Notes under the pieces: generated by a model | Databases searched by the model: none | Told to the model about the DNA's origin: nothing | The model's input: only the letters and a program-made list of their open reading frames with translations | Origin: Catajapyx aquilonaris | Lineage: Eukaryota | Reading direction: 5' to 3' | Length of the DNA stretch: 46,505 bases | Assembly (NCBI GenBank): GCA_000934665.2 | Contig: JYFJ02003084.1 | Span: 1 to 46,505, forward strand | In this document: positions 1,089-46,505 of the stretch, piece after piece | How the letters are laid out: each line of letters opens with the position of its first letter | Position numbering within the stretch: position 1 is the stretch's first letter | Position numbers and translations under genes: made by a program

Positions 1089-2263
1089 TTAGATGCAAAT
1101 TCCCTTCCTTCCGAGCTCCATATTATGCAGAATGCAGCAACTCATAATCACATCTGAAGCACTCTCTGTATCTGATTGCACCAAATATTTGAGCCTTTTA
1201 AATCTGGACTTGACAGAGGCAAAGGCATAGTCAATTTTAGCATAAGTTTTGAAAAGCTGGTTGTTGTACTCAACTTCTTCCATGTTGATCGGTCCTTCCT
1301 CATCAAACGGAACCAAGAGCCAGCCTTTGAGAGGGTAAGCACAGCTTCCAACCAGATGGTACTGGTTGTCTGGGAACATCTCCTTCGAGTGCTGGTACAG
1401 ATCTGATTCTTGCAACACACTTGAAATGTTGGTATTCCCTGGTTCTCCACATGTGCAGCTGGTAAATATCAACTTGGAAGTACATGTTCCTTGCAAAACA
1501 ACGGCTGTTTCAACTTCGCGCCGGTTTCCCTTTGTGAGTAACACTGCTACGGAGCATGCCCCAATCGTGCCTACCACACCCGGCAGCCCCGATATTTCCT
1601 CATACCCCTTTGCAATATTTTCCAGCTGATGTGCTTCTGGCCACTTGATAACCTCTGAATGCTTGACATTACAGACAGTCCCAAACACTCTCCTAACACA
1701 CAGCAACACATGCATCCGCCTCAGTCCGCCAAAGTTCCTTGGTATAATGGGCTGTCCTGTTGCCATGTAATGTAAGGCCACCGCTACCTGCTTCTGCACC
1801 CCCAAGCTGCGGAGGACCTTCGAATGTTCAATCTCAGCCCAGGCATTGCCAACTATGCATGCAACTTCCTCTGCTGTGGAAGGGCTGACGCCAAAGCACT
1901 TTTCAAAGCCGAAAGAGTCAGCAGTGTTGAGATAGATCTTCAAAAGTGGTGATGATGCGCTTGGCTCCTTCCTTTCCTCTTCTGGCGTCTCATCAGTGGC
2001 GTGTTGTTCTGTTGTGTGGAAGTAATGCATGTGTAAATAACAAATTGCATAGTTAACCATGCATGTGAGCTACTCGTACCAGTTGGCTGCATGCTTTCTT
2101 TGTCCTCTAGGCAAGCCTGCAGTATCAGCTGCATAAGAAGCTGCCGACGACGCTTCCTCCTCAACCGCTCCTGCAGAAAGGCAGCCACCAAGGCTACTAT
2201 CTCCTCTTCATCTGTACCACCAGCTAGCACAGACGTAACTGCAGCCATTGTTGCACTATCCAT
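1089..2263 (-). CDS. Harbinger/PIF transposase-derived (HARBI1/ALP1-like) protein, ~367 aa, DDE residues substituted
   Basis: Exons 2263-2080 and 2008-1089 joined by a phase-1 GT-AG intron. HTH region QKQVAVALHYMATG; motifs GVVGTIGACSV, HLVGSCAYPL, YNNQLFKT, IDYAFASVKSRFKRL, CCILHN align with DDE_Tnp_4 (GAIDGTH, GDSGYP, ERAFGxLKxRFR, CCxLHN). Confidence 0.85.
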
Positions 2264-3469
2264 CTCCCCACCTATAAAGATGATAACAATGCATACATTC
2301 CTATGCCAATGTACGGTGCATGACCCTAAAACAATGCGTAAACCAAATGTAATACCAATCCAGAATATTTTCATGGTACAGTACTAGGTTACCTGTAAAG
2401 TAACTGTCAGCTGAAATTCCGCTTCTAAAGTTGCCGCCGCCTCAGTTCAGGTCATTTCTCATTCTTAGAACTGTTTGGAACATCACAGGGTGATCCACAA
2501 GTAACATTCAGTTTGGCGTTGAGTTGGTTCGGAGCTGGTGTGAGTTTTTTGCCGGTGGCGGCGACACCATCGCTGTGCAAATTCTTTTCGAACGCACCCG
2601 GCGTCAAGAAGATCCCGATTTTAATCACCAGACTGGACGATTCTACTTAAAATAATCATATTTTAATTTATATTCACATCACAGGATTTTACTCGTAGTT
2701 ATTTCTATAAAAATAGCCATCTCATATAGTATGATGTGTAGCAGTTAGAAATTGATAGCGACCAATCTGGAACGAGCTGGAATCATTTATGCAAAATTAT
2801 GGACATGTGGTTTTTAAATTTGCGTGGTTAATTAGTTCACAACTATCATCAGCCGCCGATTTGTTCTGTGCTAATAATTGGCGTATGACTGGTTTATGCT
2901 CATATTAGTCAAATATAGAAACCAGAGGCGAATATAACAGCTCTACCTTTTGAATACGAGCAGATATGTTACTTTCGGTCCCGCCAACCCGACTCCTACG
3001 AACACCGGCGGTTCTTACTTCTTTCTTTGGCACTTCGGAAGCGAGAATAAGAGGGACCTTACGAGAACCTGAGAAGCACGTTGCACAGGCAACCACCGGC
3101 CGAAAAAGTAAGAAACCGTTGGAGTTTGTGCAGAAAGGCAGGGGCGGCGATTTATCATAAATTATAATTGTTTGTGGCGGACCTGGGGGACGGACAGCCC
3201 CGGGATCGGGGCTGGCTATTTAATACCAGCAGTCAGGAGACTGGACTTGGGACTTATCCTCTTACTGTCCAGAAGCAAATTAGGATGGGGTGGACCAGAG
3301 CTTATTGCCTTATTCTAAGCAATTGTTAGAACTGCGCAAAAGTCATGTTCAACTTATTGTCAAAGTAGGGGATGAAATGAGAAAAGTGTGAATAAGCATG
3401 CTGCTAGTGCCGCAGGAAGTTGTTCTTGTCTTCAATAAGCTGTGGGACCGGAAGTGTGTGTTTTTACTG

Positions 3470-4144: not shown

Positions 4145-6483
4145 ATGGGTTCTGCACTTTCCTTGCCGACACTTCCTTGTGACACCAATAAGTCGGACTG
4201 TTTCGTTTGCGGTCTTTATTGCGTGCGTGAAGGAATGGTGATAGTGGGCTGCCTCACAATTGTTGATTGGCTGATTGGTGATGATGAAGAGAAGGAGGAG
4301 GAGGAGGAGGAGGAAGAAGAGGAAGAAGAAGAAGAGAAGGAGAAGGAGGGGAAAAAGGAGAAGAAAAAGCCACCTACCTATCAGTCAGAGTCCATAATGC
4401 AGTTTCCTGTACGTACTCTTCCCCCATGTTGGGATTTTCATGAGAAAGGTGGATGCAAGGCTCCGAGGTGCCGAAGGGTGCATGAAGTCAATGGGCTCAC
4501 GTAAGTAAAGCTGATGTGTAAGGAAGTTGTTTATGGAGGTTATGAAGGAATTAATATGGGGAACACAGGGTTAACCCCTTTGTGTCAGGGTCTTCCATCC
4601 ATAAGCAAAGGCTTAATGACAATTATCCCTCAGACGGTGACGTGCGAAATGTTCGCTCTCCGGTGACGTGGGCACTTTTTGTGACCAAGCCATATTTTTT
4701 GTTATATGTGGCGAAATATAGCACATTCGGGCTTCACTTTTGAGACAATCATAGTGTGATTCCTTCTACGACAAATAGCGTTTAGTTTACATTTTTTAAG
4801 GAAATAGTGCGATCAGAAAAAAATCGGAAAGAAAATCAGTCGGGGCCAACTCCCGGGGGTAGGGGGATTCCACCCCTTGGCGGCCTGGGATGCCACCGGG
4901 AGCCGCCAGACCGGATCTTGGTTAGGCCCCATCTACGCATTGCCGCCTAATTTATTTTTTCCTGGTCGTGCTAATTGCTCAAAAAATTTAAACTAAACGT
5001 GATTCATCACAGAAATAGTCAAACGAAAATGTTCTCAAAGATGAATCTCGAATGCCCTAAATTTGCCAAGTTATAGCAAAAAAGGGTCGTTGGTCACAAA
5101 AAGTGCCCACGTCACCGTCCGAGGGTTATACAAGTAGTATAATAATTATAGTAGTAGTATTTATAACTACAAGTAAATGTAGCATTTGTGAATTTGGGTG
5201 GATGTGTTGGGAAGCACTGCATTGTAAGTTTAAGATCAGTAGTGTATTCCGCAGAATGGAGATCTTACACAGAAAATTGTGATATCGATAGTGTGGCATA
5301 GCAGATGACAAACCTTTGCAACAAGGAAATTGCCTACAAACACTTAGGCTGGTATATGGTGCCCATGTAACCTAGACTGGTATGAAGTCACTTATAAAGA
5401 AAGACACTGGGTACAAAAGTACCATGTACCAATCTATGCCAAATAGTACAGTGTTGGACATAAATCGAGGCATATTGCTAGCGACATTTTCCGAAGCGGC
5501 AGAAGAAGGAATCGAAGATAAGGATACTGCAAGTCGGGCGAGCAGGATTCCTTCTTCTGCCGCTTCGGAAAATGTCGCTGGCAGTATGCCTCGATTTATG
5601 TCCATCACTGTACAGAACTAGTTCAATATTACTGTACACTTGTGCACTTACTTGTATACAGTATGCAGAAATTGCTACAAATTCTTTTAAAAAATCTTGA
5701 GCAGATGGCCTCTGACTGAGGCTGCAATTAGTGCACATTTACTGAACTTGGTGTGTATGTATCAGCCGTGTGACACTTAGAAATCATGTAAAATTTGTAG
5801 CAATATGAGGATCATATTTTTGAAATGCTCCATAAAATCTTGGTTTACTGCAATTTATTTGATTTGATAATTTTGGAAATAATAACTGTATAAACAGACC
5901 TAGGATACTGTACACGACTGTGATTTTGGAACATCTCTCTCCGTATGATGCTGTATGGTCTGAAAGTATAATTTGGAATTATTTGCGATTTTAAAAATCC
6001 AATTCTGTTCTTTGCAGAAAGTTGCGCAGCCACATCCGCTCTGCCAAGCAGACTTTGGACGTTTGCGTCTACAACGTATCTGCTTCAGACCTGCAAGATG
6101 CTGTGACAGATGCACACAAGAGAGGGGTGAAGGTGAGGGTGATTAGCGATGTCATGCGAGGAAAGTCTTCTGGTACGATTATAGAAGCATGCATAAAGTA
6201 TGGCATTCCATCAGTCTTCAAAGTGCCTGCATCACACTCAGCTGTCCATCACAAGTTCATAATTGTAGACAGGAAGGTATTGCTCTATGGTAGTCTTAAC
6301 TGGACCACAGGAGGGATATACGAGAATAGGGAGTGCCTCAGGGCCACAGACAAACAGGACGCTATTGTTCAGTTTGAAGCTGAGTTCATGCAGTTGTGGG
6401 AGAAGTTCAAGGCTTATGATGACGAATATGAGCAGGTTTTCATGTCACGTGACAAGCCTGCAAAGAGCCTGAAGCAGTCCTAA
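4145..6483 (+). CDS. zuc: Zucchini/PLD6 (MitoPLD) phospholipase D-family nuclease, ~273 aa
   Basis: Exons 4145-4500 and 6018-6483 (AC|gtaagt...ttgcag|A, phase 2). CCCH zinc motif CWDFHEKGGCKAPRCRRVH, IRSAKQTLDVCVY, RGVKVRVISD and a single HKD motif HHKFIIVD followed by GSLNWT. Start codon uncertain (4145 or 4397). Confidence 0.88.
4627..5125. mobile_element. piggyBac-like foldback MITE (499 bp) in the zuc intron
   Basis: TIRs CCCTCAGACGGTGACGTG and CACGTCACCGTCCGAGGG; TTAT on both flanks (4623-4626, 5126-5129); long imperfect internal inverted symmetry. Confidence 0.8.
5449..5610. mobile_element. Palindromic MITE with TA target duplication in the zuc intron
   Basis: TA|CAGTGTTGGACATAAATCGAGGCATA...TATGCCTCGATTTATGTCCATCACTG|TA; arms ~63 bp. 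Confidence 0.85.
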
Positions 6484-11969: not shown

Positions 11970-13237
11970 GGAGAATATTTGCGAGATTTCCGGAAATGCT
12001 CTTTGAAGTGTACTGTTTTTGTCAAATGTTAAAACTCCATCAATTATACCTGTACAAATGCTTAGCTTTTATTGACAATAATTATAATTCATTCATCACG
12101 GGTCATGTTAATACTCGACTTAATATTACTTCTGCTGTAATAACACTTTTGACTCATTTCGGAGTTATTAATATCACAAAGGCTGTATTACAATCATGCT
12201 ACAATTTAACACATCTTGCAGGTTAACTATGTGGTCCTTAACAAGTTACAATAAAGGCCTACCGTATACTCTGTGAGGTCCAATTAACTTCATCACAGCT
12301 GTCATTGCTTAACCAAGTCCAATAACAATGGTAACAATAGTGTTGTAATATTAGTACCTCATACAAATCGGAGTATATACAGTAGTTTATTACGTAACGG
12401 ACTACAAAAAATCCGAACATCGACACATATCACATAAGAGGAAAAGTTGTTTTCTGTTGTGCAATGTCCTCTCATATACTTGTAGCTTTTGTTCCAAGTT
12501 TTATAAGCACCTTTAATATAATAATATTATCTTCTGAGGCCTTATACGTGCAGACTTGAAAACCACATAACGGAAATGACATTGCAGCAATATTGCCGTC
12601 CAGGCTATAGCGCATAAATAATTAACGAGTATGCTTACGTAGTCTTACGATAGTGATCAGTCAACTCAATACAGGCGGAAGGCATTTTATTGAACATCAA
12701 TGTACTGTACGTTGCTGTGTTTGTGCAGTCATTTCTGTGGTTGTGGTAGCAACTCTCATGCTGAATCAACGCTTTTTTGAATGTGGTTTATCACACCAAG
12801 TCTGGCTTTCTCATAAACACGTTCATGCTGTACTGAATGTAACAAAAATAAATACCATACAGAAATTCAAACGAGCTTTCAAAATACCATGATAAATCTC
12901 CGCTTTGCAAAAAAAAATTAGTAATAATATGCAGCACAAAACAATGCTTTCAAAATGATTGTCATGCACTACAATAATTTTAGTCCGATTTGGTCAATAA
13001 CTGATTAATTCTTACCTAAGTCCGACGGACTTAACGAGGCTTTTAGTGAAGACGGATTTTTCAGGTATATGAATATCATTCTATACATATTATTCATCTT
13101 TTGCAAAGAATTGTCTTCAGTTTTATTAGTCTAAATAGCGAAAAATGCTATTTCCGTCGGGTCATTCGTATGGTCAAGTAATATGTATAATATTCCGCAC
13201 AATTTTGCACGATGCTGAATGCGCTGAGAAGAACCTG

Positions 13238-16200
13238 CTAGTTGTCTTCAGGAAATTTTAATCGTGGTGCTTCGACGAGTTTCTGTGGTCCAACTGTGGT
13301 CACCCCATCCCCACCTGGAGCGTAATTTGAATGTTCGATGCCAAACGACGATATGATGATGTTGAGGAGTGAAGTGATGAACACTAGCAGGAGGATGACG
13401 TCGTTAATTATGCTTGCTGCTCCTTGGTTTTTTTCTTTGTTGATATTTAAGCCTCCGATCACTATGTAAAGGATTCCGACCACAACCTGTCACATATAAA
13501 AATTGCTTGATATGAACTGGAGGAATACTTCATGACGCTGAAGGTACAGTTGCATCTTTACAAATGAATGAAATGAAATATCATTGTTGTCGGCACACCA
13601 TACGGTATTATTAGGCTACGTGTTTTTATTAGTCCCATATACAGCATGTCGTTAGTTCATCAATTATATTGTATTTTGTAGCACAGTTGCACACCGAATC
13701 ATATCACAGCCATATTTGAAATGAGATCGCAGGCAAAAAGTCATGTTTAAAAGGCATTCGAAACTTACCTAAGTATACGCATGAGTGTTTTTTTTTTTTT
13801 TGCTTCTTGCCACAGTCGCCTAAACTGCAGAAATGTTGAGCTATTACTATCCATTTATTTGGAAAATTTTGTATTGCACTATACTATAAAGCATGTGGGT
13901 AAATTACGAGATATTCTTCGCAGTAACTGCAAGCCAATGAAATTGTTTATTGACAACTTCTATGTTCTATCCCAAATCGTTTAATATCAGTGACGTATGG
14001 GTTGATAAGCTTTATAAGTGTAGAAGCTTGTCTCGCATTTTTCTTTGTAATTATCCCTGACCAAATAATATTTTATTTCTCAAAATCAAGAATATGATAC
14101 GTCACTCTTTGGGAGTTATGGCAGTTTCAAATGGTATTTAAAAAGTAGTTGATTGCACCTTGATTGCACGTGGTGTAGCCTACTAGATAATTTTAGTTTT
14201 TCTATTATATTGCAGTAAAAGTAAGACAGGTTATTTGGGCAAGTCATTTATTTGTGCTCTCATTTCTACTGAAGCTTTCTTCTGGCCTAATATTTTAAAC
14301 TGAAAACAAAATAAATTCTTGCTGCCCATAATGAACAATTTAGACGTGTCATCTACTTCCAAGGTTAGTTAACGCGTATATGTGTACTGAAACCATACAA
14401 ACATGACACATAGAGCCCAAGAAAACGAAAGCAGGAGCATGTCTGCACTATATGCTTTCTTGGATGTGTCGAGTCGCATAAACCAGATGTATAGTTAATA
14501 TTTTAAAAATTCGTCTTGCGCATAAACCAAAACGTAAATAAGTGCACATCTATTATACTGTATGTCTCACAAGCACCAAACGCACCAACTAACAGTGAGC
14601 ATCAAGTCATACAGAATGTTCATAAACATCAACCGATCGAGTAATTAGCGCCAGTCCCTCCTCTCGATAGTCGAATCCCACTCAAAGACGGACTTGAAAA
14701 TGTCGACGACCATCAGTGTGAACGTCAAGATGAGAACCACGAGATTGATGATGTCCACTGCCCTCTGCTGCGCCACAGAACCCATGTTAAGCGCCACTTG
14801 CACCACGGTGAAGATGGCCAGCAACGACTGATGGGCACCCAGCAGCCAGTCACATCAAAAGTAGTCAGCATCAGCTACAATTTTTTTTTCATCCAACTTT
14901 CTTTGGGGGGGTTAGGTAGTAAGGTCCAGGTTTGGAAGGAACAGGCTGGGATTCACTCTCTAAATTATTATTATTTTTTCATTTTTTTCTCCAATTGATA
15001 TAGAACTAATATTTGTGAGTGCTCTTTCAACTATATTCTCTTAGAACCAGTTGTATCAACTCAAATGAGAAGGAAAAGCTCTAATTATATATGTATTGTG
15101 AATATCTGCATACAACCGTTCCTAATAGCGATTTCCCTGAGAATTACATTTGACTAAAAAAACTAAAATTGCATTTTTTTATAAAAAATAAATTAATCAA
15201 TGATATTGCTTAATAAATAAATTTAGATTTATTTAATCACTTTGGAAAGGAGCAGGTGCCATTTGTAGTGTAGAAATAGTGAAAACCCACTAATTGAGCA
15301 GAATTCCACTCGTGTTGTAACAGGGCATTATATGCAATGCATGTGCAAAAGATGTGGTGAGAGAAACTCGTGTGGTCATTACATCAGGGGAAGGGGCCCC
15401 CTGAGGACGGAGACAGGGTCGAATGCGCAGATGAGGATGTTGAGGACGGAAACTAGGAAGGATGCGGAGAGTCCCACGTAGTTGAAAACCAGAGCTGACG
15501 TTTGGTAGGGTATCAAGTGCAGGCGGCAGTCCCTCAGGAAGTTCAGGGTAACGCTCAGCGTGGCCATCACCACCTATTATATACACATGCATATACACAC
15601 GGTGATGTAACAACCACAGAGTTTTCCTCACGAAACACTGCTTTCCTTTACATATACATTTACACGTCTAACTTTTAATCGAACTTGTATGATTATATTG
15701 AACAGATCACAGCTTAAAAATAGATCTACGATTGACAGAAGCCAGATCGACTTGAAGTGAAGAAAGCAAAAGAGCACGCGATGGAAAGTAGGCTATGCCA
15801 TCATGCTCGTATAGGACAGGAAGGGTTATACAGTGTGGAAGGGGCAATGCCCTTTCCAGCAGAAAGTGCGGGTCGAAGATTTAAACCTGGCTGACTTTAC
15901 TACAAACAAACAAAACCGAGACCAAGATGAAACCCAGGCAAGGTGAATGTCGAGGGTTATCATTTTTATGATAAATGGTGTCAGTCATTATAATAAAATT
16001 GGTTCATGCGTGTCTTACGTGCGTTTCGTGAAACGCGGTGCATTTAGTTCATTAACGCTGCTGTTGCTGTCAAAAAATGGGGACAACAAGACTGTGGGCA
16101 TCGATTTCCGGTTGACCACGGCGGTGTCTTGTGTTTGCCTTTGAGGTAAGGTCGTCGTCTAGGCGACCTCATTTCTTATTGGCACTCATATTGCCCACCA

Positions 16201-18427
16201 TGTATGTGACCATTGATCCGAGGTGAAAATGAACGAAGGGTGTGCAGACAACAATAGAGCTCACTTCACTTCATGCGAGGTTTAAATCTGATTACGTACC
16301 ACGTTGCATTACGATCATAATCATAATGGGAGTCAATTTCATGGTATAATTTCAGCCAATATGTAGTTGACCATTAATCGCTGCAATATTTGGTAATTAT
16401 GCATGATTGAGGTAAAAAAAAGGACTGCTACACTATTTGTCATGTTGCGTAATTATGCATCAAACTTTGTGAATAACTCTATTGATATATTGTATATTAT
16501 TAATGCTCCAAAATACCAAAAATGCAATGCAGTAAAAGAGAATATTGTTAATTAATTATAATGTAGTTAGTACGTTGTTTTTTTGCTGAAGAGGAGGTGC
16601 GCCAGGTCACAGTTAAAAGAACACAAAGCAGTAGGTGGAATTAAATAACACAGAATGAGCTCTCTGAAGGACGCAAACAGTGCGAAGAACAGACAAAAAA
16701 ATGTTTAGAATAAAAGATGATAATAATAATGGGACAAACAATATATTTGTACTAGTACTGGAGCCACAGTCAAGTGTTGTAAAAGTAATTAAAATGGTCA
16801 TCCAGATTACGATGTACTAAAAATAGTCTATGGATCCTCTCCTTTATTTTGATTTCTGTTTTGCTCGATTTGAATGTATCGTTTCCATTCTGCCTACACT
16901 TGAAATATGACCCGCTTATTTTCAGAAAATGCGGTATATTCTCACAATTGATTCACAATCAATACTGGCAATAGCTTTTTGTCGATTTGGCTAACCTTTT
17001 TTCATAAATTGGATGTGATAGGCCCTTCTACAATTTTATTGTGCATTTTTCGTCAAATAGCAGTTCCCACTCATCACCAATAAGTTAATGAGTCGAATAA
17101 AAGTAATGTCCAAAAAGGATTTCATGTGAAAGAGTGAAACATTACTCGATGTAATTTAGTGGGTATACGTTAGTATACTTTAATTTAGTCGACTTTTAGT
17201 GTACGTGACATATACTCGTATAAGCAGCTAATTCACTCCACTATCTTGAGAGTAACATAAATCGATGCAAGATCCAGTGAAGATTTTGACAACCAGGTTT
17301 AAACCTCGCCTCCTTAATAAGTACTATAATGAATTTTGATAATCGAATGATGTATAGAGTATTAAAAAATAATGACAATAATCACCTGCAGTATGATGGA
17401 AATGGAGATGAGGGAGACAAGCACTGTGTAGAACTCGTGCTTCTCTCCGACCTGGAGGACATATTTGAGTTGGCTGGCGTTGGCGGTCAGCAAGGCAATG
17501 TCCAGCATGCCCTGGGCAATGGTTTTCCTCGTGGCATACCTGTTGGCGTCCAGCCCAGGTTTGCCCTGCCAGCCCCATAGGTGAAAGGGAGAACAAAAAG
17601 ACAACTTTCAGGCCCACATTGCAACAATGCTACAAATGCACGGTGCAAATTTTGTTGCGATTTTTTTCGTCCAACACATCGAATTTATTTATTTTGAAAA
17701 CGTTTGATCTATATGCAGCTGTGCTATGCAGAGAGTCAATGAGTCATCCCCGCTAAAAGGTTAGAGGTACCTGGTATCACACCATTGTCTGGTAGAATTT
17801 ACGTAACGGCCGTCTCCTAGGCGAGTGCCATCGATCAATTTCCTTGTAATATTTACCACCTGCCATTAGCTTCGACCATTTTCATAGGAATTGCTATTTG
17901 CTAGTCGATACGGATGGTACGAACCTCAAACTGTAGTACTAATATTGAAAGCATTTTTCTTATTGAACAATAACTTCTTGTGACATGCGTGATAATGTAC
18001 GGTATATATCTACAAAGCAATTAGGCTACTCCAGCAGCCACCAGAAGGGTTTTTCATTGCAGGTTTATTGTGACTTCATTACCCAAGTTCTGATACTGTA
18101 TACTACCAATGAATAGGTCATTATCAAAACCAGGATATCTCATGTTGTCAAAAGCGTGTTAATACCTGGTTACAGGAAGCAACTCGACGCTAAATTCATA
18201 TTTCAAATAATATGGAAAATTTTCACATTGGATTCACCTCCCATTGGGCAAAGTCACTTTGAGCGTGAAAAGACTTAGTTAATCTGAATTACCTGTTTTC
18301 TGAAGGATTCGTACGGATAATGAGTTAATGACTATACTCAAATAAATGTTGGGCGATTTTCAATTGAGCACAAATTGTGTTAAATACATACCACTCTTCC
18401 ATCGTCAGGAGATATTGACGTCATCAT
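13238..18427 (-). CDS. NijC: Ninjurin (NijC-like) gene: common exons plus distal terminal exon 3d
   Basis: Exon 1 18427-18392 (MMTSISPDDGRV, less certain); exon 2 17565-17386 (DANRYATRKTIAQGMLDIALLTANASQLKYVL...ISISIILQ, ninjurin signature); phase-0 splice to 13486-13238 (VVVGILYIVIGGLNINK...INDVILLLVFITSLLNIIISSFG). Confidence 0.88.
14645..14827 (-). CDS. Ninjurin alternative terminal exon 3c (absent from the ORF track)
   Basis: catcag| phase 0; SLLAIFTVVQVALNMGSVAQQRAVDIINLVVLILTFTLMVVDIFKSVFEWDSTIERRDWR*; two hydrophobic segments homologous to exon 3d. Confidence 0.8.
   Translation of the reverse strand, partial: SLLAIFTVVQVALNMGSVAQQRAVDIINLVVLILTFTLMVVDIFKSVFEWDSTIERRDWR
15379..15573 (-). 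CDS. Ninjurin alternative terminal exon 3b
   Basis: aatag| phase 0; VVMATLSVTLNFLRDCRLH...FNYVGLSASFLVSVLNILICAFD...*; minus-strand AATAAA at ~15228. Confidence 0.82.
   Translation of the reverse strand: MVMATLSVTLNFLRDCRLHLIPYQTSALVFNYVGLSASFLVSVLNILICAFDPVSVLRGPLPLM
16613..16816 (-). CDS. Candidate divergent ninjurin alternative terminal exon 3a
   Basis: ctatttttag| phase 0; YIVIWMTILITFTTLDCGSSTSTNILFVPLLLSSFILNIFLSVL...*; keeps the N-x13-N spacing of the other three exons. Confidence 0.55.
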   Translation of the reverse strand, partial: YIVIWMTILITFTTLDCGSSTSTNILFVPLLLSSFILNIFLSVLRTVCVLQRAHSVLFNSTYCFVFF

Positions 18428-20265
18428 GAGGCGTCACCACTACCACCAACTCCAGGTATAATATCCTAGTCCTCTGGACGGAGTCCCCAAGCTCACTGTA
18501 GTATATGCCCCGCTGCTTCCAACTGCACAGCCCAGTGGCCCAGTTGTGGGCGGGGGGGCCCCTCTACTCTTGGATCGGCAGTCACGCAATAATCATCGAT
18601 CCTTAAAAAGACCTCGCTTTCACTCACTCACTGCTATGCTACAGTACCTGCATTAAAATTGCGACATGGAAGTCCCAACAACCGGCTCCTAGGAAAATTT
18701 TTGTACGTATCTCAGTCTGCCCTGTTGGTCGATCTGTTGTATAGAAAAGGTCGATCTTCCTCTACAGGCATGAATCATGGCATTGACTGCCTAATGCGGC
18801 CTCCAACACCGACGGTAGCCATGTTAAGGCCACCTTTAACACGGTCTACTGGCCATGCGGTTTATGGGTACTATTGTTCTTCATACAGCCTGGCCTTTCT
18901 CTCCTCCGTTTTTTGCTTCTTTATTTTTACGACAGTCTGATTCGAGAGGTGGGATCTTTCGAGGTCGACAGGAATCATATCCTTCACAATTATTATGACT
19001 TGTTTTTGTTTTTATTTAAAGTGACAGGTGTGGTTGGTGACAGCGACAAGTGTAAGCTCAGTTCACAATAATTCATTTCCTGAAAGTAACTTTCTATAGT
19101 AGTCATTAAAGCCATCAACCAATAGACTACCAGTCTACCAACAGCAGAGTCGCGAATTTTATTTATTTATTGTCCAGGTGCAATAAACAACAACAACAAC
19201 AACAATATACAACATTAAACTGTACCGTGCACACTACTGTCCATCATATACCGGTATATAATTGGCTAGGCGTGACTTTGTCCCTTTACTATAGGTGAAG
19301 GTGACTCATCACCTGTGCTGGGCAGTGTCGCTTACGTTAGTTGAAGCAGAAAGAATTGTACCAAGGTAAGTTATTGCAATATTCTTTGTGATGATTGGTA
19401 CACCATGGTAACATATCCGAACTTCCATTGTAAGACGCCGCATATTATTACAATGCTGCACGGTAGTACCTATGCACTGTGCAACGCGCTGTTGAAGTGC
19501 CAAACGCAATGACACAGGCTAGCTCTGTTGTGGCCGGAGTTCTCACCAGAGATGTCATGGTGGGTCAAATAATTTCCATTATTTTTAATTAATTTCCTTA
19601 GTTCATAACCCACCATGTTTTTCATCCCTTTCCTCCAGATGGCAGCACCACCTCCGCATGAACCGTAAACTCCGATACGGTAGATCTTTCTCCCGAGCTT
19701 CCCCAAGAGACGTCCAGTGGGCAGCATCTCCCGGGGCATCTCTCCTCCCCACATTGCGATATTATATATCCTTCTTCGCCAACCTCTCTCGGGTTTCCTC
19801 TTCCTCCACCACTTGCTGGACACAATTAAATGCACTGAATCATCGGTCCAGACGGGAACGATGAAGCTGGACAGACGCCCCTGAAAAGCGACCCCACACA
19901 CACGTGAGTTCATGGGAAAAAAAAAAAGTGTTGCACAAACTGGTTAGGCCTAATAGGATGGAGTCAAAAATTACAAGTCATTATTAGTCATTATAGTCAT
20001 TAGGAGAACAGACGTGTGCTGGAGCACCCTGCAGACTCAAGGGCTGGTAAGCACACCTGCACATTAATTGGCGTGGCAATCAGGTAACTGGCATTAGTAC
20101 GACCTCTTGGTACGACGTATGACAGCAATGCCGGGGCATAATTAGACACTTTCACTAATTGGAGTACTTATACGGCATGCTTATAAGCACTGCTAAGTGG
20201 CCGTTATCGGGGAAGAAAGCAAGTGATTTAATCACCATCTGACTGTCCTGTTTCCAGGTAGCGAC

Positions 20266-23200
20266 ATGTACAGCTTTGAGGGAGAGTTCCGCACGCGTCC
20301 GCACCAGAACCTGGGAGGACTGCGGTCTCGCCCTGAGCGGGAGAAACTTCTTCGGCATGCCCACGAGGAGCGGCAGAAGCGACAGACTGAGCGTAGGCGG
20401 TTGGCGGCCACCACACATCTGCAGGCGTTTGCGAGGGGATGCCTGCAGAGGACCAACTTGCGGTCCAACCTGCATATGCAGTTTGATTCCGCTATGGCCT
20501 CTCCTCAGAGCGAGATTGATGCCAGCTCCTTTCTTAGCCAGCAGATGTGCCGCCTTCTGTTCCTGTATCGTGGGGAGGAGGATGCAGGGAGGCTGATGGC
20601 TTTGTCCAAACAGATTCTGAAGCAGAGGGACAAGGTGGTGGCGGAGACTGCGGCGGAGGTTGTGTCTGGAGTGAGAGTAGGGGGCGGGTGGATACACAGG
20701 CTGCGGAGGCTCCTCTGGCGTCACCTGCAACTTTTAGTCCACCTGTCCAAGGAGGCGCAACCGGGAGACTCGCCGGCTATCTCGCTAAGGATATGGGAAG
20801 TCTTCGGCATGCCCAAAACCTGGGTGGAGGTGGTCGACGAGGCAAAAGCTACTGCGCTCTTGGTCAACGTGTACACCTTCATTATTTTTAGAGGTATGTG
20901 GAATTGCAGGGCTGTGAGAAGAATGTGGGTATTGTTCTTCCTGCAGGAAAATAATCTGGAACATTCGACGTGGCAAATTGTTGCAACCGATAGTGTGGGT
21001 TGACAATGGGAGTTAATGTTGAGGTCACAAGCTGAAAGAAAAGTTACTATTTTTCCAAAACATTTCATCCAGAAAATATAAATCCTCTGTTCATAGATCG
21101 ACCTTTTGTTTTGGACAGCATGTTTTGGCCAGATCACTTGCATATCACATGAGAATTTTGAGTCTAAGTTTGATTTTGGACGAAAATTTTGATGGAGTAT
21201 CATTTTGATGACAGTACCAAGGACAAAATGTCGTTTAAATATTGTTTGATGTGGTTTTGGCTCATTGTCAGTGGTACAACACCACAATTACTAGTGCAAT
21301 CATGCATTAATTTCAGTTCATGTGCAAAGGATTTGAATAGAGGACTTGTTGATATTTGTTTCGCTTTCAAGGTCTAATGTTGGTTAAATGTTGTTGCAGG
21401 CTACTTTCACGACATACGTTTCTTGCTGGAAGCAAAGGTTCCTCCGATGTTGGAAAAATCTCCGAGGCCGCCAACTCCCCTTTCAGCCAGCATCCTCGCC
21501 ATGTTGTTTCAGCCCCTAGACCTGTTCAGAGCATCCAGTGACCAAAACTTCCAGTGAGTTTCTCAATTTGTTATTGTATTGAATCACAGCTAAGTGTCTG
21601 TCCCTGAGTGCGTTGTTGTAAACTACACCTCTTCATTTTACAGAAAACTTGTGTCAAGAAATCTTTGCGCCGCTTTACTCGCCCCTCGTCCTTCTGAGAC
21701 AGTGAGCAACCTGGTGATCCCTGCTCTCTGTAACTGGCCGCAGCTTCCCTTCTACCTGCTGGTGGACACTCTAGCCGGTGACCCTCCCCCCACGGATACC
21801 TCCTGCTCTCCTTGGCTTCTACGTTCCCTGCTGCAGCTGGCCCAACTTCATCTTGACACTCCGCATGCCTCCAGCTTTCTTCGGGTCTTGGTGCACACGC
21901 TGGACTCCATACCACCTCCACTGCCTTCTTCTGGCTCGGCAGGTGACCAAGGAACAGATAGTGACTCGGAGGATGAGGAGGAACCTTCCCTCACTGAGGG
22001 CATTTCCCGCGAAGAAAAGCAGTGTCTGGATGAGGGCATGGAGCTTTTGAATGACCCCCGCATGGTTACAGCACTGATGACCTGGCTTGATCAACTGGAT
22101 GGGAACTGGTCACTTGAAGCAGTGTGCCGCCTCTGCCACGTGCTTCTGTTGTCGGACCGCCTTGCAGCCCACCGCTTCCCACTCTTATACACCCTGGCTT
22201 TCCGGCCCCACTTTCTCCATCGGCTGTGGGCAGCTATGGCGGGCATAGGAGCTCCCAGGCTTCTACAGGCTGTGGCAGAAGGTGTCCATCTTTCACATGC
22301 CCAACAAGAGAGGCTCCTTCCGCCCCTGGCCACCTTCTGCTCGCTGTTTAGCTACCTGCTGGTGACACTCCATGACTCGGAGTTTTACGGCGAGGAAGCA
22401 GCAACAGCCATGCCCTTCACCCTTGCGGAGCTGCCTGGGGTGTGCAGGCAGCTGCGTGACGTTTGCTTAGGATTAGTGGACCTGGCATTTCCCGACCAGC
22501 GTCCAGCATACAGGGAAGCAACAGGGTTGCTGGAAGAGAGCAGCGTGCGCAGGCAGTGGGTCACGTCCTCTCAGGTGTGGAGCCACCTGCTGAGGTCCTG
22601 CGTGGGACTCTTGGCCCAGCTGCATGCCAGGGACGCCAGAAGGCCATTCTGCCCAGAAGGACACTGGATATCCTCGAAAGTGTCCCTGCCCTTTGACCGA
22701 CCCACAGACCTCAGCTGCCAGAGGCAGCGGTTCAGAGGATATCGGCCCTTTCATCTCTACCACATCACCAGGCAGCAATTGGGTAAGTCTTACCAGTGTG
22801 TAATGATGTATTACATGGGCAGCCTAAGAGGAATGCGATTGCAAGTCCAGGTCATGTACATACATTTTGAAACAACTACGTACTCGACGAAATACGTTCC
22901 TAATCTCTTTCAGAGCAAGATGGTCCTCCCCCTTCAATCCGTGAGGTGCGTCTGATGACTGTTCTGCGTGAGATCCCCTTTGTGGTTCCATTTGCGGAGC
23001 GGGTGGAGGTTCTCCAGCAGCTTGTTCTTCGTGACCGTGCTCAGCAGCAGGGTGGAGAAGCCGCGGCATTCCTTCAGGGCCCTTCCATTCAGATTCTGGT
23101 GCGTCGTTCCTATCTGTATGAGGATGCGTTTGACAAGCTGAGCCCGGAGAATGAGCCCAACCTGAAGTTGAAGATGCGGGTGCAGTTAGTGAATGCAGCT

Positions 23201-24713
23201 GGGGTGGACGAGGCAGGAATAGATGGCGGAGGACTGTTCCGGGAATTCCTTTCGGAAGTGCTTCGAACTGGGTTTGATCCCAATCGAGGCTTCTTTCGGC
23301 TGACTCATGACAACCTTTTGTACCCCAACCCCAGTGTACACCTCTTGCTCCCACCTGACCAATTCCCACGCCACTACTATTTTCTGGGCCGTCTGCTTGG
23401 GAAGGCATTGTATGAGAATATGCTGGTGGAGCTGCCACTGGCCCACTTCTTCCTTGCGAAGTTGCTGGCAAGGAGTTCGGCCAACGTGGACATTCACCAC
23501 CTGGCGTCTCTTGACCCGCTCATGCATCGCAATTTGCTTTCTCTCAAGAACTACCCAGGAGATGTGGCTGACCTTGGGCTTGACTTCACATTGCTGGCTG
23601 AGGAGCTTGGAGAGACAAGGGTCAGTGTCTCTTTAATAATGTAATTGTGTTGCTGTAGTGTGCCTTTAAAAGTTATGTGCAAGTAGACCTACATTTACAT
23701 GTTGGCAAAGATGATTTTCGCACTGGTACCAAGGAGTCTTCAAATTTCAACTATGTTGCCTGCACATATGTGAGAATGTTGAGATATTGACGTAGTGTTG
23801 TATAATTTTTTTGAACAGGTCGAGGAGCTGAAACTTGGTGGAGCCCAAATTCCTGTGACAGCATCGAATCGTATTGAATACATTCATCTAGTCGCTGACT
23901 TCAAGCTCAACAGGCAGATACGAGCGCAATGCAATGCATTTAGACAGGTAAGGCAGTACAACTCGACTAGTTTTTGTAAGACTTGACACTTCCTCTTCCA
24001 AAAATCTACAACTTTGGAATTTCTGTGATTTCTGTTTGCACGGATTTAACAAACATCGCACCTTCTTAGTTGAAGTCTTGTTCGGAACTGTTGTTATGAA
24101 AACTGTCCTTGACTCTTTGCCTGCTTGGGCCTGTGTTATTTTTACTTTGAGCATACTTCCTCGCTGAAGTCAATATCATTGAAACAATATATCAAACGTG
24201 ATGACCTTTCTGGTGTCATTAGTGCCTCGTATTCCCACAAGTCGGCTAGTGCATACAGGTAGTAAATGTGGAACTCTTAACCTGCAGGGCCTGGCCAACG
24301 TGATCCCTCTTGAATGGCTGCACATGTTCAGCTGCAAGGAGCTTCAGGTTCTCATCTCAGGGGCCCGTGTCCCGATTGACGTGGATGACCTGCGAGACAA
24401 TTGCGTGTATTCAGGAGGATACACCTCTGAGCACCCCACCATTCGACTGTTCTGGAAGGTGGTGGAATCGTTCACAGACCAGCAGAGGAGGCAACTCCTC
24501 AAGTTTGTGACGAGCTGCTCTCGACCACCGTTGCTAGGCTTCCGGGAGCTGTATCCACCATTCTGCGTTCAGAGTGCTGGGAGTGAAGAAAGGCTTCCAA
24601 CCGCCTCCACATGCATGAATTTACTGAAGCTGCCAGAGTTTTCAGAGGAGCATGCTCTCAGAGAGAAGCTGATATATGCCCTGGAGTCTGGCTCTGGTTT
24701 TGAACTTAGTTGA
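20266..24713 (+). CDS. UBE3C: HECT E3 ubiquitin ligase UBE3C, ~1060 aa
   Basis: Exons 20266-20893, 21400-21553, 21644-22782, 22914-23620, 23819-23947, 24288-24713, all in phase. N-terminus MYSFEGEFRTRP..LGG, IQ-like LQAFARG, HECT motifs EAGIDGGGLFREF and RLPTASTCMNLLKLP, C-terminus GFELS. Confidence 0.95.
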
Positions 24714-29321: not shown

Positions 29322-32300
29322 TTATCCCATCATCTGAAAAAAAAGGAGAGGAAGTTAGAAAATTGGTTATTTGGGGATGAACTAAATATTCAAGTTATGC
29401 AGAATTATTCATGTGTTTGCACGTCTATACGTACCTGTGAAAAATACCGGTACAACACAGCAGCCAAGATTCCCAGCATGAAGAATCCAAGGTCTCTTGA
29501 CCAAGTGAGAAAGAACCACTTATGGTAATCGTAGATAAGTGCCATCATGCGGATGTTGTTTTCTGTGTACTTCGGGTAGCGGAAACGACCCACTGTTTCA
29601 CCCCAAGCCTGAAGAGTTCTCCTCATGGCTGGCTTCTTGTGTGAGAATGTGTCGAAGGTGAACTTGCCATGGTAGTTGCCCATACCACTACTTCCAACAC
29701 CTCCAAATGGGAGCTGATCAACTGAAAGAGATGACACTTTCATGTAAGACAAGCTGGTCTCGTTGAGGATTCACTAATTCAGAACTACCAAGCTTATTAC
29801 AAACATTGTGTTGATGTTAACATGGACGCCAAGTAATGGTGGTGGACAAGGTGAACATGTGACAGCTACTGTTAACACAACTTACCAATACACTGGAACA
29901 ATGTGTCATTAACGCAAATCCCTCCGCACGAGACTTCTTTCATCAGCTTGACCTGTGTCTTTTTGTCTTGTGAGAATATGTAAAAAGACAGCGGCTTGTC
30001 CCTGAAAAATTACAACCATCAGCTCACTAATCATTTGCTGAACAATAGGCCCTTTGTAGTCAGGCAAACCATGGCAAATTCTCTTTCAAAATTAATGAGG
30101 TTCTTAATGCCCTGGAGATAAATTATTCTTGAATTGAAAATGGCATGTCGGACAAACCTGCTGGTGATGAACTTGACAGCTTCTTCAGCAGAATTGACTG
30201 TGACAACTGGTAGGATGGGTCCAAAAATTTCTTCCTGCATAAGGGGATCATCAGGTGAGACGTCAACCACAATGGTTGGTGCAATCCACCTCTCTGAAGC
30301 ATCAGTATCTCCACCAAGGGCAATGTGGCCTTTTGTCGTATCCAGCAAGTTCTTCAAACGTCTGAAAATACCCAGCATTTGCGTAAACAGCATGAAACAT
30401 GATATTACCAATTCAGTAAAACCTCGATATAAAGCTCCCGCATATAACTCTATCCCGCTTTTAACGATCCTTTTTCCGGTCCCTAACTAATTCCCGCTTA
30501 TAACGCTAATGTTGTCTGGTCCCTTGAAGAGCTTTATATTGCGGTTTTACTGTATTATTAATACATAAATAATAACTTGTGCCCGGTGATAATCCCATGG
30601 GCTTGTTGGGGATAATTTCTTGAATGTCCAACATTATTCATAAACTTATTCTGATACGGTATGAAATGACTTACGCATCATTCTAAGCTTGTAAGCTATT
30701 GCCCAAAATTTGCATGCTGTAATAAGTATAGAAGAAAAAAATCATACTTAAAGTGGTTGTCGTTGATAATGCGGCACAAGTCAGGGGATGCCTTAGGGTT
30801 GTCCCCATACCAGCCATGCAAGGTGCTCTTGGCGTATGTCACCAGCTTCTTCTGAGCTTCCTTAGAGCACAGTAGATAGTCTGGAGAGATACAGGTCTGG
30901 CCCATGTTCATGCATTTGCCCCACATTAGGCGACGAGTTGCCATCTCCCATTCCACAGTTTCATCCATGTACACCGGGCTTTGAAAGAGAGGAACGACAG
31001 CAACAAATAAGAATAAGATTAAAAACTTGAGCATCACACAGTACTGTTGGAATATTGTTTTACCTCTTCCCACCAAGTTCAAGAGTGGTTGGTGTCAAGT
31101 ATTTGTTTGCAGCAGCATGAATAATGCGGCCTACTCGTGTAGAGCCGGTGTAGAAAATGTAATCAAATTGATGTTCCAGTAGTTTAGTGACAACTTGTGG
31201 ACCACCTTGTACCACTTGATAGCATTCCTGTTAAAGCAGAAAAAGAAGGAGACAATGAAGGACAGATTTATGATCCACATTTCATACTCTCAAGGTACTC
31301 ACAGGGTCAAGGTATTTTGGAATGAGCTTGGCCATGACCTGAGCAGCAAGAGGTGCAACTTCCGAAGGCTTCAGAATGACACAATTTCCAGCAGCTATGG
31401 CACCAGAAAGTGGCAGCAGTGTCAGATGGAGAGGATAGTTCCACGTACCAACAATAAAGACGACGCCATATGGTTCACTCACAATGGACCCAACGTCCGT
31501 AGGCAAAACCAAATTCTTTGCAATCTGCAACAATTTCCTTCATTTAGTACAGTTCCAGATGAAACATTGCCACAAACATACCAAAAAAAGAGGAGGGATT
31601 TCCCAGAGTATCATAAACAAACATTACATAATAATTGTGTAAGAATTGCAGTACTTGAAATATTCCAAAACAGGTCTAGGTACTTACATATTCGACTTTT
31701 GTCCATGTGCGCAACTTTTTCAATGCTTCTTGGGCATCCACTTTCAAGTACAGAACCTCAAACATGTACGACTCCAGCTTAGGCTGCAAGAGATCACTCA
31801 TAAAAATTGCTTATACAGTACTTACGGCCTTCAGGAAAACCAACAAAAAATTGTCACTACCAACTCACCTTACATATGCCTTCCTTGAGGGCCTCACAAA
31901 GCATCTCCTTGTTTTCTTCATACATTCGCAACAAGTTACGAAGTTGCTGCTCACGGAAATTGATGTCCCTGGTCCGACCAGATTTGAATGCCTCTCTGGC
32001 TCGTTTGACTACCTGCAATGCAAAATTAATTAAATGAAAATATTTAAAATCATGCAACTGTTGGATAATTTTGAAATTCACAAACATCTGAATCTCAGGA
32101 AGATTTCTGGACCAGCACGGACAATAAATGTGTGGGCCTACTGCATACATTTTCAATAATCACCATGCTTTACTTTAGTATTATTTCATGAATTTCAAAA
32201 AAACAATATGCTCACTAACCCAGTTGCACAATCTCATACTCTCTTTTTCATAGTCACCTCAGAAAATGGAAGTATTGTGATAAGTACCGGTACCGGTACA

Positions 32301-44900: not shown

Positions 44901-45394
44901 CCGACCCTCCCCCTCCAGCTTTCTCTCGCAGCTCTCGATTGACCTCTTCGTCTTGTTGGATTCTAATAAGCAGTCTCATCCGATTTCTTTTTCTTGTGCT
45001 CCTTTTTTTCCCCCCGCCCCTCACGTTCTTTTTTACCGTCCTTTTAATGCGACTTAACCAGTCGAACACCCAATGTGATTTTATCAAGGTCAATTCCTGG
45101 TGGTTCATTTCGTGGTCGAGAGGTGGCGTAAGTGGGCTCCAATCTGCAATGGGGTTAATGCGAAAGGAAGACGACAGATGGGATGGTTGCGTACAATGCC
45201 AATATTTTGCTTGATGGTGGCACCACCTGGCGAGGATCAGTGTTACTATGCGGATATACCGCGTGATCCAAATGATCCAAATGATTTCATTCCTTGAAGC
45301 AAATAACTTTGAAAATTGATATACCGGTATTTGCATTTTTTTGGTTCATAAAATATTGCAACGTTGCTTTTAGTCCGGGTGCTAAGGGGTTGAA

Positions 45395-46505
45395 CTTCGC
45401 ATTTTGTGACAAAAGTATGAAACTCGGTACACTTGTCCTTTGGACACTTCTGATCATATCTGGACGTGGAGCCACGATGACCCACCCCGGTGGTGGTCCA
45501 TTTCGCAGGGTTTCCATAACTACCAGATGCAGCATCCTTTTAGGACCTTGTATTGGGTGACAAAAACATGAAACTCTCCACAATTGGTCATTGGACACTT
45601 CTGAACATGTCTGGATGTGGAGCCACGATGACTGACCCCGCTGTGGGTCACTTGCAGGGTTGCCAGATCTAACGGACCAAACATACATCTCTGCGAGGAT
45701 CATGTGAATTGGGAGCTTGCATTCGGTGATAAAAACGTGAAACGCGGTACGGTAGTTCTTCGAACACATCTCAACATATCTGGACGTGGGGTCACGGTGG
45801 GTGACCCGTGGTGGCCTCGCCAGGGGTCACTATCGCGGAGTTGCCAAATCGAACATGTGTTGCACACCTTTACATGAATAAGGGCCTTGCATTCGGTGAT
45901 AAAACACTGCTAAAACATGAAACTCGCCCCAATTGGTCTTCGGACACTACTGAACATGTCTGGAAGTGAGGTCACTATGGATGACCCCGCTGGGGGTCAC
46001 TCGCAGGGTTGCCAGATCTAATGGGCTCTCTAAGTAAACTATGTGAATAGGGAGCTTGCATTCGGTGACGAAGACGTGAAACTCGGTACAATATAGTTCT
46101 TTGCACACTTCCGAACATATCTGGACGTGGGGCCACGATGACCCACCCCGGTGGAGGGCACTATCTGGCACTATGATGGTGTTGCCAAATCTAACAGACT
46201 GTGCAACATGCGTTTATATTTTGATAGGGAGCTTGCATTTGGTGACAAAGACGTGAAACTTGGTAGAATTGTTCTTTGGACACTTCCGAACATATCTGGA
46301 CTTGGAGCTACGATGACCCACCCCGAGGGAGGGCACTATCGCAAGGTTGCCATATCTAACAGAATGTGCAACATGTGTTTCTATTTGAATAATGAGCTTG
46401 CATTCGGTGACAAAGCCATAAAACTTGGTACGTTAGTTCTTTGGACACTTCCGAACATATCTGGACGTGGGGCCACGATGACCCACCCCGAGGGAGGGCA
46501 CTATC
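45395..46505. repeat. Diverged tandem array, unit ~165-178 bp, about 6.5 units, running off the window
   Basis: GCATTCGGTGA...TGAAACTCGGTAC...GGACACTTCCGAACATATCTGGACGTGGGGCCACGATGACCCACCCCG recurs near 45399, 45550, 45719, 45889, 46058, 46236 and 46400. Confidence 0.92.

Follow-up and report, generated by a model that had tools for sequence, protein, structure and literature searches.

Arrays of duplicated alternative exons, from which one is chosen per transcript, are old and conserved features of arthropod genes, as in Dscam1, Mhc and ABCC/MRP, where the exons are internal, frame-preserving and mutually exclusive. An array of another kind, whose members carry their own stops, is described here for a ninjurin gene of Catajapyx aquilonaris, located on the minus strand of a 46,505-nucleotide (nt) stretch of contig JYFJ02003084.1 (the whole 46.5 kb being called the window below). 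It is a genuine ninjurin gene of the arthropod (pancrustacean) type. In its most probable organisation, to which we give a probability of about 0.8, a single common exon is followed by three alternative 3' exons of types B, D and A; an open reading frame (ORF) at 16816-16613, which a preliminary description had counted as a fourth such exon, is excluded.

In mammals, the membrane hairpin of ninjurins is diversified through two separate genes, NINJ1 and NINJ2, whose filaments (8cqr, 8sza, 8szb) have a similar four-helix layout, whereas in Catajapyx aquilonaris one gene would swap residues 92 to the end by means of alternative exons. According to the NINJ1 study of Degen et al. 2023 (PMC10307626), helix alpha3 spans residues 79-103 and alpha4 residues 114-138, the two together forming the filament core, while alpha1 contacts alpha1, alpha3 and alpha4 of the neighbouring protomer and, at interface III, alpha3 packs on the neighbour's alpha4. 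The same study gives G95-F127 as the top co-evolving pair, reports that lysis is reduced or abolished in the mutants G95L, T123L, I134F and A138L, and lists the K45-D53 salt bridge, K65 and Q91 as polymerisation residues (PMC10307626).

RefSeq/Gnomon isoform sets of insects and of a barnacle, which are products of automatic annotation, resemble the gene closely, as they also have a common exon ending in ...ISISIILQ and modules of types A, B and D with their own stops. The window differs from them in three respects: insects also have type C, of which the window holds no exon; exon D of the window is strongly diverged from the isoform sets; and the order B-D-A departs from the order B-A-D implied by fused lepidopteran models. 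No paper describing or testing alternative C-terminal ninjurin exons was found in a search of the open-access literature, which covers neither subscription papers nor FlyBase, and in passages of two studies Drosophila NijA, NijB and NijC are treated as genes, without discussion of such isoforms (PMC11664169, PMC3460944). The preliminary description mentioned alternative C-terminal isoforms of Drosophila NijC, a point on which the same search yielded no paper. The gene belongs to a kind that has already been automatically annotated in many species and is apparently unstudied.

Exons of the ninjurin gene

The common exon (Table 1), which is preceded by ...ggctggcag and whose last codons ATA CTG CAG are followed by gtgatt, corresponds to positions 1-54 of the 102 positions of the Pfam Ninjurin family (PF04923; E-value (E) 5e-26, 91 bits) and aligns without gaps to residues 36-91 of human NINJ1 (8uip_A, E 1.5e-13). 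It covers the equivalents of alpha1, alpha2 and the N-terminal half of alpha3, and the equivalents of K45, D53, K65 and Q91 are all conserved in it (K, D, K, Q), in likeness to NINJ1 and NINJ2. Its 3' boundary coincides with the equivalent of Q91, in the middle of alpha3 (helix limits as given in PMC10307626). Of 920 candidates in a protein search with this exon, 905 reached E<=0.001, and the 120 top-ranking ones among them were all arthropod ninjurins with identities of 79-89%, never above 89%. Many of the 120 are RefSeq isoforms X1-X7, and some of the multi-isoform genes are named 'ninjurin C' in RefSeq. In the window, the N-terminal ninjurin exon occurs in a single copy, as judged from profiles and tblastn, and a tblastn comparison of 16 isoforms with the window (E<0.01) matched three sites only, 17568-17410 (common exon), 15573-15400 (B) and 13540-13325 (A).

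Within one species, database isoforms have the N-terminus in common and diverge right after ...ISISIILQ. Tails were cut at this boundary from 119 of the best 120 proteins, P0003 being without the motif. Eleven tails were excluded from typing, five from fused or truncated models and six unclassified, and profiles of types A, B, C and D were built from 24, 16, 36 and 22 unique tails, respectively. The types are recognised by the signatures ...FGIE (A), LLRDCR...NY...AFD (B), FNIN...LNN (C) and ...CDVIKMxFGLDPA (D).

All four ORFs proposed downstream of the common exon start right after an AG in phase 0 and end at their own stop, and three of them proved to be ninjurin modules when the 1182 window ORFs of at least 25 amino acids were scanned with the type profiles. 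The best type-A match is the ORF at 13241-13489 (E 1.2e-24); the corresponding exon covers Pfam Ninjurin positions 55-102 (E 8.6e-8, 32.5 bits, above the curated cutoff of 26 bits) and aligns to NINJ2 103-156 (E 2e-6) and, without gaps, to NINJ1 94-143. The best type-B match is the ORF at 15382-15573 (E 2.4e-21, 71 bits), whose exon has an LRDCRLH loop and a second helix of the form ...NY..F..N...AFD, and matches Culex isoform X4 by tblastn (E 3e-14). The type-A profile also matches exons B (E 8e-6) and D (E 5.8e-5). Among the 1182 window ORFs, the profile scan detected neither a type-C exon nor any additional module.

Exon D is the most divergent of the three. The ORF at 14648-14854 was the best type-D match (E 1.3e-4), with first-round scores that were weak for type A (18.8 bits) and type D (18.0 bits) alike. 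With an enlarged type-D profile of 33 sequences, including metagenome D modules and leaving out both the window exon and its relative P0121, the score rose to 30.9 bits (E 9.2e-9) and exceeded that of every other type (A, 18.8 bits). In its second helix the exon bears the type-D marks D42, K45 and ...F-x-x-D, that is, Asp (frequency 0.97 in type D) where types A, B and C have Asn (1.00), and Lys where they have Ile (0.89). The exon is therefore typed D on the basis of its profile score and of the Asp and Lys positions that separate D from the other types. An exhaustive phmmer search with exon D against 1.84 billion representatives gave one match, P0121, a 101-residue ORF on a 1194-nt contig of a relative (72% identity, E 8.5e-18). 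The match starts exactly at the first codon after the proposed acceptor and runs to the stop, the C-terminal stretches being identical and the preceding residues unrelated.

In a table of alignment columns, each window exon carries the diagnostic residues of its type, namely RDCR and NY in B, D42 and K45 in D, and FGIE in A. Hydropathy divides each of the three modules into two hydrophobic stretches flanking a polar loop. The GC content at third codon positions (GC3) is 0.77 in the common exon, 0.78 in B, 0.79 in D and 0.48 in A, the GC content of the introns being 0.33-0.39. The modules lie 0.55-1.2 kb apart, and no ninjurin N-terminal ORF is found in between. They differ from classical mutually exclusive exons in that each ends in a stop, at the lengths listed in Table 1; because each carries its stop, they are best regarded as alternative last coding exons or stop-bearing cassettes.

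Re-reading of the sequence returned the five coordinates, the strand and the phases of the preliminary description unchanged. Its statement that the common exon ends in phase 0 inside the first hydrophobic helix agrees with the mid-alpha3 position of the Q91 equivalent, and its statement that the downstream exons finish this helix, add a loop and a second helix and bring their own stop holds for B, D and A. The N-x13-(N/D) spacing that it described is present in all four ORFs (N28..N42 in A, N31..N45 in B, N28..D42 in D and N24..N38 in the rejected candidate); in the three real exons it falls on conserved columns, with N in 0.57-1.00 of the sequences and N or D in 0.97-1.00, across module types. 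Its count of four interchangeable exons is reduced to three, since B, D and A match type profiles and the frame at 16816-16613 is put down to chance.

Table 1. Coordinates of the ninjurin gene and of associated signals in the window
Feature	Position	Strand	Details
Tentative first coding exon	18392..18427	-	MMTSISPDDGRV; donor GTG/gtatgt, phase 0; one of several ATG...GT candidates
Constitutive (common) ninjurin exon	17386..17565	-	60 codons, phase 0 at both ends; donor CAG/gtgatt
Alternative C-terminal exon, type B	15379..15573	-	64 codons + TAA; 195 nt
ATTAAA + AATAAA hexamers	15228..15237	-	142 and 146 nt beyond the stop of B; might serve as poly(A) signal where B is the terminal exon
Alternative C-terminal exon, type D	14645..14827	-	60 codons + TAA; 183 nt
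Alternative C-terminal exon, type A (canonical ninjurin module)	13238..13486	-	82 codons + TAG; 249 nt
AATAAA hexamer	13122..13127	-	111 nt beyond the stop of A; probably the poly(A) signal for the final exon

The proposed mechanism is as follows. The constitutive exon would encode both amphipathic helices of the N-terminus and the initial half of transmembrane helix 1, and its single donor at 17386 would be spliced to one or another of three paralogous 3' exons, arranged in the order B, D, A and presumably derived from old tandem exon duplication. Each module would supply the rest of the helix, a loop, the second transmembrane helix, a short tail and the stop. Three proteins are predicted as the outcome, which share the N-terminal 'trigger' part and differ in their membrane hairpins.

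The tentative first exon was found without homology support in the searches made. First exons of relatives are similarly short and unconserved, and end immediately before GKP... As to the 3' ends, a further poly(A)-like hexamer is found 393 nt after the D stop; hexamers of this kind are frequent in this AT-rich DNA and constitute weak evidence. A conserved donor was also sought immediately 3' of the stops of B and D, in the window and in 16 loci of relatives, and no consistent pattern emerged.

Module sets, order and transcripts in relatives

Isoform sets in databases follow the same scheme. In Plodia interpunctella, isoforms X1-X4 are of types A, D, B and C, respectively; in Culex quinquefasciatus, X1, X2 and X4 are of types A, C and B; and in the barnacle Pollicipes pollicipes, X1-X3 are of types A, D and B. 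Among 23 groups of proteins with an identical common segment, 13 carry two to four module types. Six database models (P0004, P0115, P0100, P0035, P0025 and P0037) are fused, as B+A+D, as D+C or as half of A plus D, and probably represent mis-joined alternative exons. The module order that can be read from them is B-A-D for Lepidoptera, and D-C for Aedes as well as the flea.

A quick tree was computed from 93 of 142 unique modules (the database tails being thinned to every other one and the rejected ORF left out) over 63 columns, with many open forks. Modules cluster in it by type and not by species: window B falls in a B clade of 22 rows (SH-aLRT 98), window A lies within the A group (support 88), and window D joins P0121 (support 99) among the D rows, outside a branch uniting A, B and C (support 87). 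As types A, B and D are common to insects and the barnacle, the duplications predate the split between the two; the grouping by type, together with this shared distribution, suggests an old tandem exon duplication.

Arrangement and splicing of the exons can both be observed in relatives. Metagenome contigs were scanned by means of an alignment of the common region, which yielded 35 loci, partly redundant. Ten of them contain the common exon and no module, 3 match weakly and in part without reaching any profile, 14 are genomic with modules on separate ORFs, and in 8 the common exon is fused in frame to a module. Among the genomic loci with modules, B comes first in 13 of 14, and the complete series common-B-D-A, as in the window, is present in eight (L017, L018, L019, L022, L026, L027, L029 and L030). 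One further locus has B-D and then reaches the contig end (L020), two have B-A (L031, L032) and two B only (L014, L028).

The eight in-frame fused contigs are cDNA-like and join the common part to B (L005, L010), to A (L012, L016, L023, L024), to D (L021), or to B and then A (L013). The contigs L005, with B, and L023, with A, are 98.4% identical over 495 nt, and this identity ends exactly at the module boundary. The pair provides the clearest sign of alternative splicing of one gene, albeit in another organism. For Catajapyx aquilonaris itself, we infer the same splicing.

Two further comparisons concern the manner in which B is used. The common exon, the A exon and the 3' untranslated region (UTR) of L013 and L012 align with each other, and L013 has an additional B exon of 205 nt (317-521). 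In L013 the B stop lies 7 nt before the junction to exon A, which then acts as 3' UTR, so B can be a stop-bearing cassette. In L005 and L010, on the other hand, the 640-950 nt that follow B contain no A module, which indicates that B can also have its own 3' end.

Two variant arrangements were recorded among the same loci. In L017-L019, which may represent one species, two D exons lie in tandem between B and A (1647-1892 and 2074-2304 in L017), so that an array can hold four modules without type C. In L025, two A-like modules (2643-2900 and 3062-3226) are present, with no B or D, and the common exon is more distant (69% identity); this locus possibly stems from another lineage in which a duplication occurred independently.

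Other readings of the locus

The ORF at 16816-16613 is rejected as a fourth module; it is probably a chance ORF and not part of the gene. The alternative, that the gene has four alternative exons and that this one is young or fast-evolving, draws on its phase-0 start after AG, its two hydrophobic stretches, its N-x13-N spacing and its own stop, and we consider it quite unlikely. The best type-profile match of the ORF (16616-16816 among the 1182) has an E of 4; no Pfam match was obtained, nor a tblastn match in the 35 related metagenome loci; a word-based protein search scored one candidate, which did not pass, a weak negative; and no poly(A) hexamer lies within 930 nt after its stop. Its GC content is 0.33 and its GC3 0.35, which is the intron level. 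When the intron sequences were shuffled 300 times with dinucleotides preserved, 71% of the shuffles contained an ORF of 67 or more codons preceded by AG, with a mean of 1.1 per shuffle, and no module is present between the common exon and B in any of the 13 B-first genomic metagenome loci. It is the combination of intron-like GC3, lack of a homolog and the frequency of equally long ORFs in shuffled introns that leads to its rejection. The lesson for annotation is that hydrophobic ORFs in AT-rich introns can mimic membrane-module exons. A caution of another kind is that exons B and D, when scanned alone, escape Pfam.

Another reading holds that only the canonical exon A is used here, B and D being decaying relics of the ancestral array. 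The divergence of exon D, which reaches 18 bits against the insect D profile and stays below the Pfam cutoff, is in its favour. It is nevertheless very unlikely, as B and D keep open frames, AG acceptors and diagnostic residues, with a GC3 of 0.78-0.79 compared with 0.34-0.39 in the flanking introns, and as the 72% identity of exon D to the ORF of a relative, including the identical C-terminal stretch, gives way to an unrelated frame in the upstream intron.

The modules might finally belong to several ninjurin paralogs arranged in tandem and equipped with individual 5' exons, a reading for which the tick model P0003, with two complete domains, offers a precedent of whole-gene tandem duplication; this is extremely unlikely in view of the single N-terminal ninjurin exon in 46.5 kb, of the absence of any ninjurin N-terminal ORF in the short intervals between the modules, and of relatives' contigs that join one common exon to different modules, sharing the 5' part and differing in the module only. 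The preliminary description had named independent paralogs as one finding that would overturn its proposal; what was found is one N-terminal exon in the window and a shared 5' part in the contigs of relatives.

The organisation with one common exon and the three modules B, D and A is to be weighed against several results that count against it. Exon B alone has no Pfam match, and a word-based protein search with it passed none of 43 candidates, a weak negative. Exon D reaches an E of only 0.013 (15.8 bits) against Pfam Ninjurin, below the cutoff, and has no tblastn match at E<0.01 in the 35 metagenome loci. In the quick tree its placement is an unresolved polytomy on the D side, so that the tree backs the clustering by type and not the exact position of D. 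Moreover, the lepidopteran order is B-A-D against B-D-A here, so that 'D' may not be orthologous across lineages. The use of B differs among relatives, as a cassette in L013 and with its own 3' end in L005 and L010, and in the window B and D may be either terminal exons with poly(A) sites of their own or stop-containing cassettes. Lastly, isoforms of type B from Culex and of type D from Anabrus were modelled with AlphaFold2 at low confidence (pLDDT 53 and 61, respectively), both models showing a helix-turn-helix downstream of the common part. The best Foldseek matches of both models in the PDB are NINJ1 and NINJ2 chains (E ~1e-3, TM 0.56-0.62 on the target), partly due to the shared N-terminal half, and given the low confidence of the models they serve as a sanity check only.

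The predicted hairpin swap and the surroundings of the gene

Since exon A aligns without gaps to NINJ1 94-143, the alternative exons replace residues 92 to the end (92-152) in NINJ1 numbering. The swapped part is most of the alpha3-alpha4 hairpin and includes the equivalents of G95, F127, T123, I134 and A138. Three positions form a skeleton retained across module types, namely those equivalent to N119, F139 and N133, the last being Asp in type D; in comparison with NINJ1 and NINJ2, the three modules of the window keep the equivalents of N119, F127 and N133, again with Asp in place of N133 in type D. At the positions of G95 and F127 the residues depend on the module type: G/F in A, mostly A/I in C and G/T in insect D. 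As both partners of this intermolecular contact lie on the same exon, the isoforms would be expected to differ in self- versus cross-assembly or in filament geometry.

From these residues, the isoforms probably differ in polymer packing and hence in lytic or adhesive behaviour. The functional reading proposed in the preliminary description, by which the swap could tune lysis, partner choice or localisation, is a reasonable one, because the swap maps onto the NINJ1 filament interfaces. A broader idea is put forward as tentative, and we hold it to be possible rather than probable: the module array would be an ancient device, at least of Pancrustacea age, by which one ninjurin gene makes different kinds of polymer, with a type-specific self-preference and with D as a possible regulator. 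Each module type would prefer its own kind, because the alpha3-alpha4 contact between neighbouring protomers is encoded on both its sides by one and the same exon. Type D, with Asp and Lys in its second transmembrane helix, could be a non-lytic or chain-terminating subunit that restrains or redirects rupture, and as a built-in regulator its role would be comparable to the split between mammalian NINJ1 and NINJ2.

These considerations bear on a question raised for NINJ1, namely which features of the alpha3-alpha4 hairpin decide membrane rupture. Arthropods appear to be a natural experiment in this respect, with the same trigger helices and with hairpins varied three or four ways, a scheme conserved in insects as well as barnacles. 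Should lysis, co-assembly or localisation vary among the isoforms, these would provide ready-made chimeras for structure-function work, and such differences would explain hard-to-interpret results of single-isoform constructs or whole-gene knockouts in insects.

Upstream of the ninjurin gene lies a large gene for a HECT-domain E3 ligase (20227-24710, plus strand), whose last exon matches HECT with an E of 4.5e-52 and which sits in a GC-rich stretch at 20-24 kb (GC 0.50-0.53). This gene and the ninjurin gene lie on opposite strands in head-to-head orientation, so that the interval at about 18.5-20.2 kb may serve both as a promoter region.

Elsewhere in the window, an open frame of 326 amino acids at 1092-2069 (minus strand) matches DDE_Tnp_4 (E 5.4e-18) and is probably a Harbinger/PIF-type transposase or a domesticated relative. 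An exon-sized ORF at 5995-6480 (plus strand) encodes a PLD-like domain containing an HKD motif (PLDc_2, E 5.8e-26), and presumably resembles the small mitochondrial PLD/Zucchini-type nucleases. Several aldehyde dehydrogenase exons are present at 29408-31094 on the minus strand (Aldedh, E 4.6e-12 and 5.5e-4). Long simple repeats of the trinucleotide type, at about 26.3-26.7, 33.2-33.4, 34.4-34.5 and 41.9 kb, read as poly-Ile, poly-Leu or poly-Asn in several frames, and at least one N near 32.9 kb appears as X in the ORF translations. Finally, repeated ORF pieces with the recurring peptide ...LVLWTLPNISGRGATMTHPEGG... at 45290-46504 suggest a tandemly repeated element at the end of the window.

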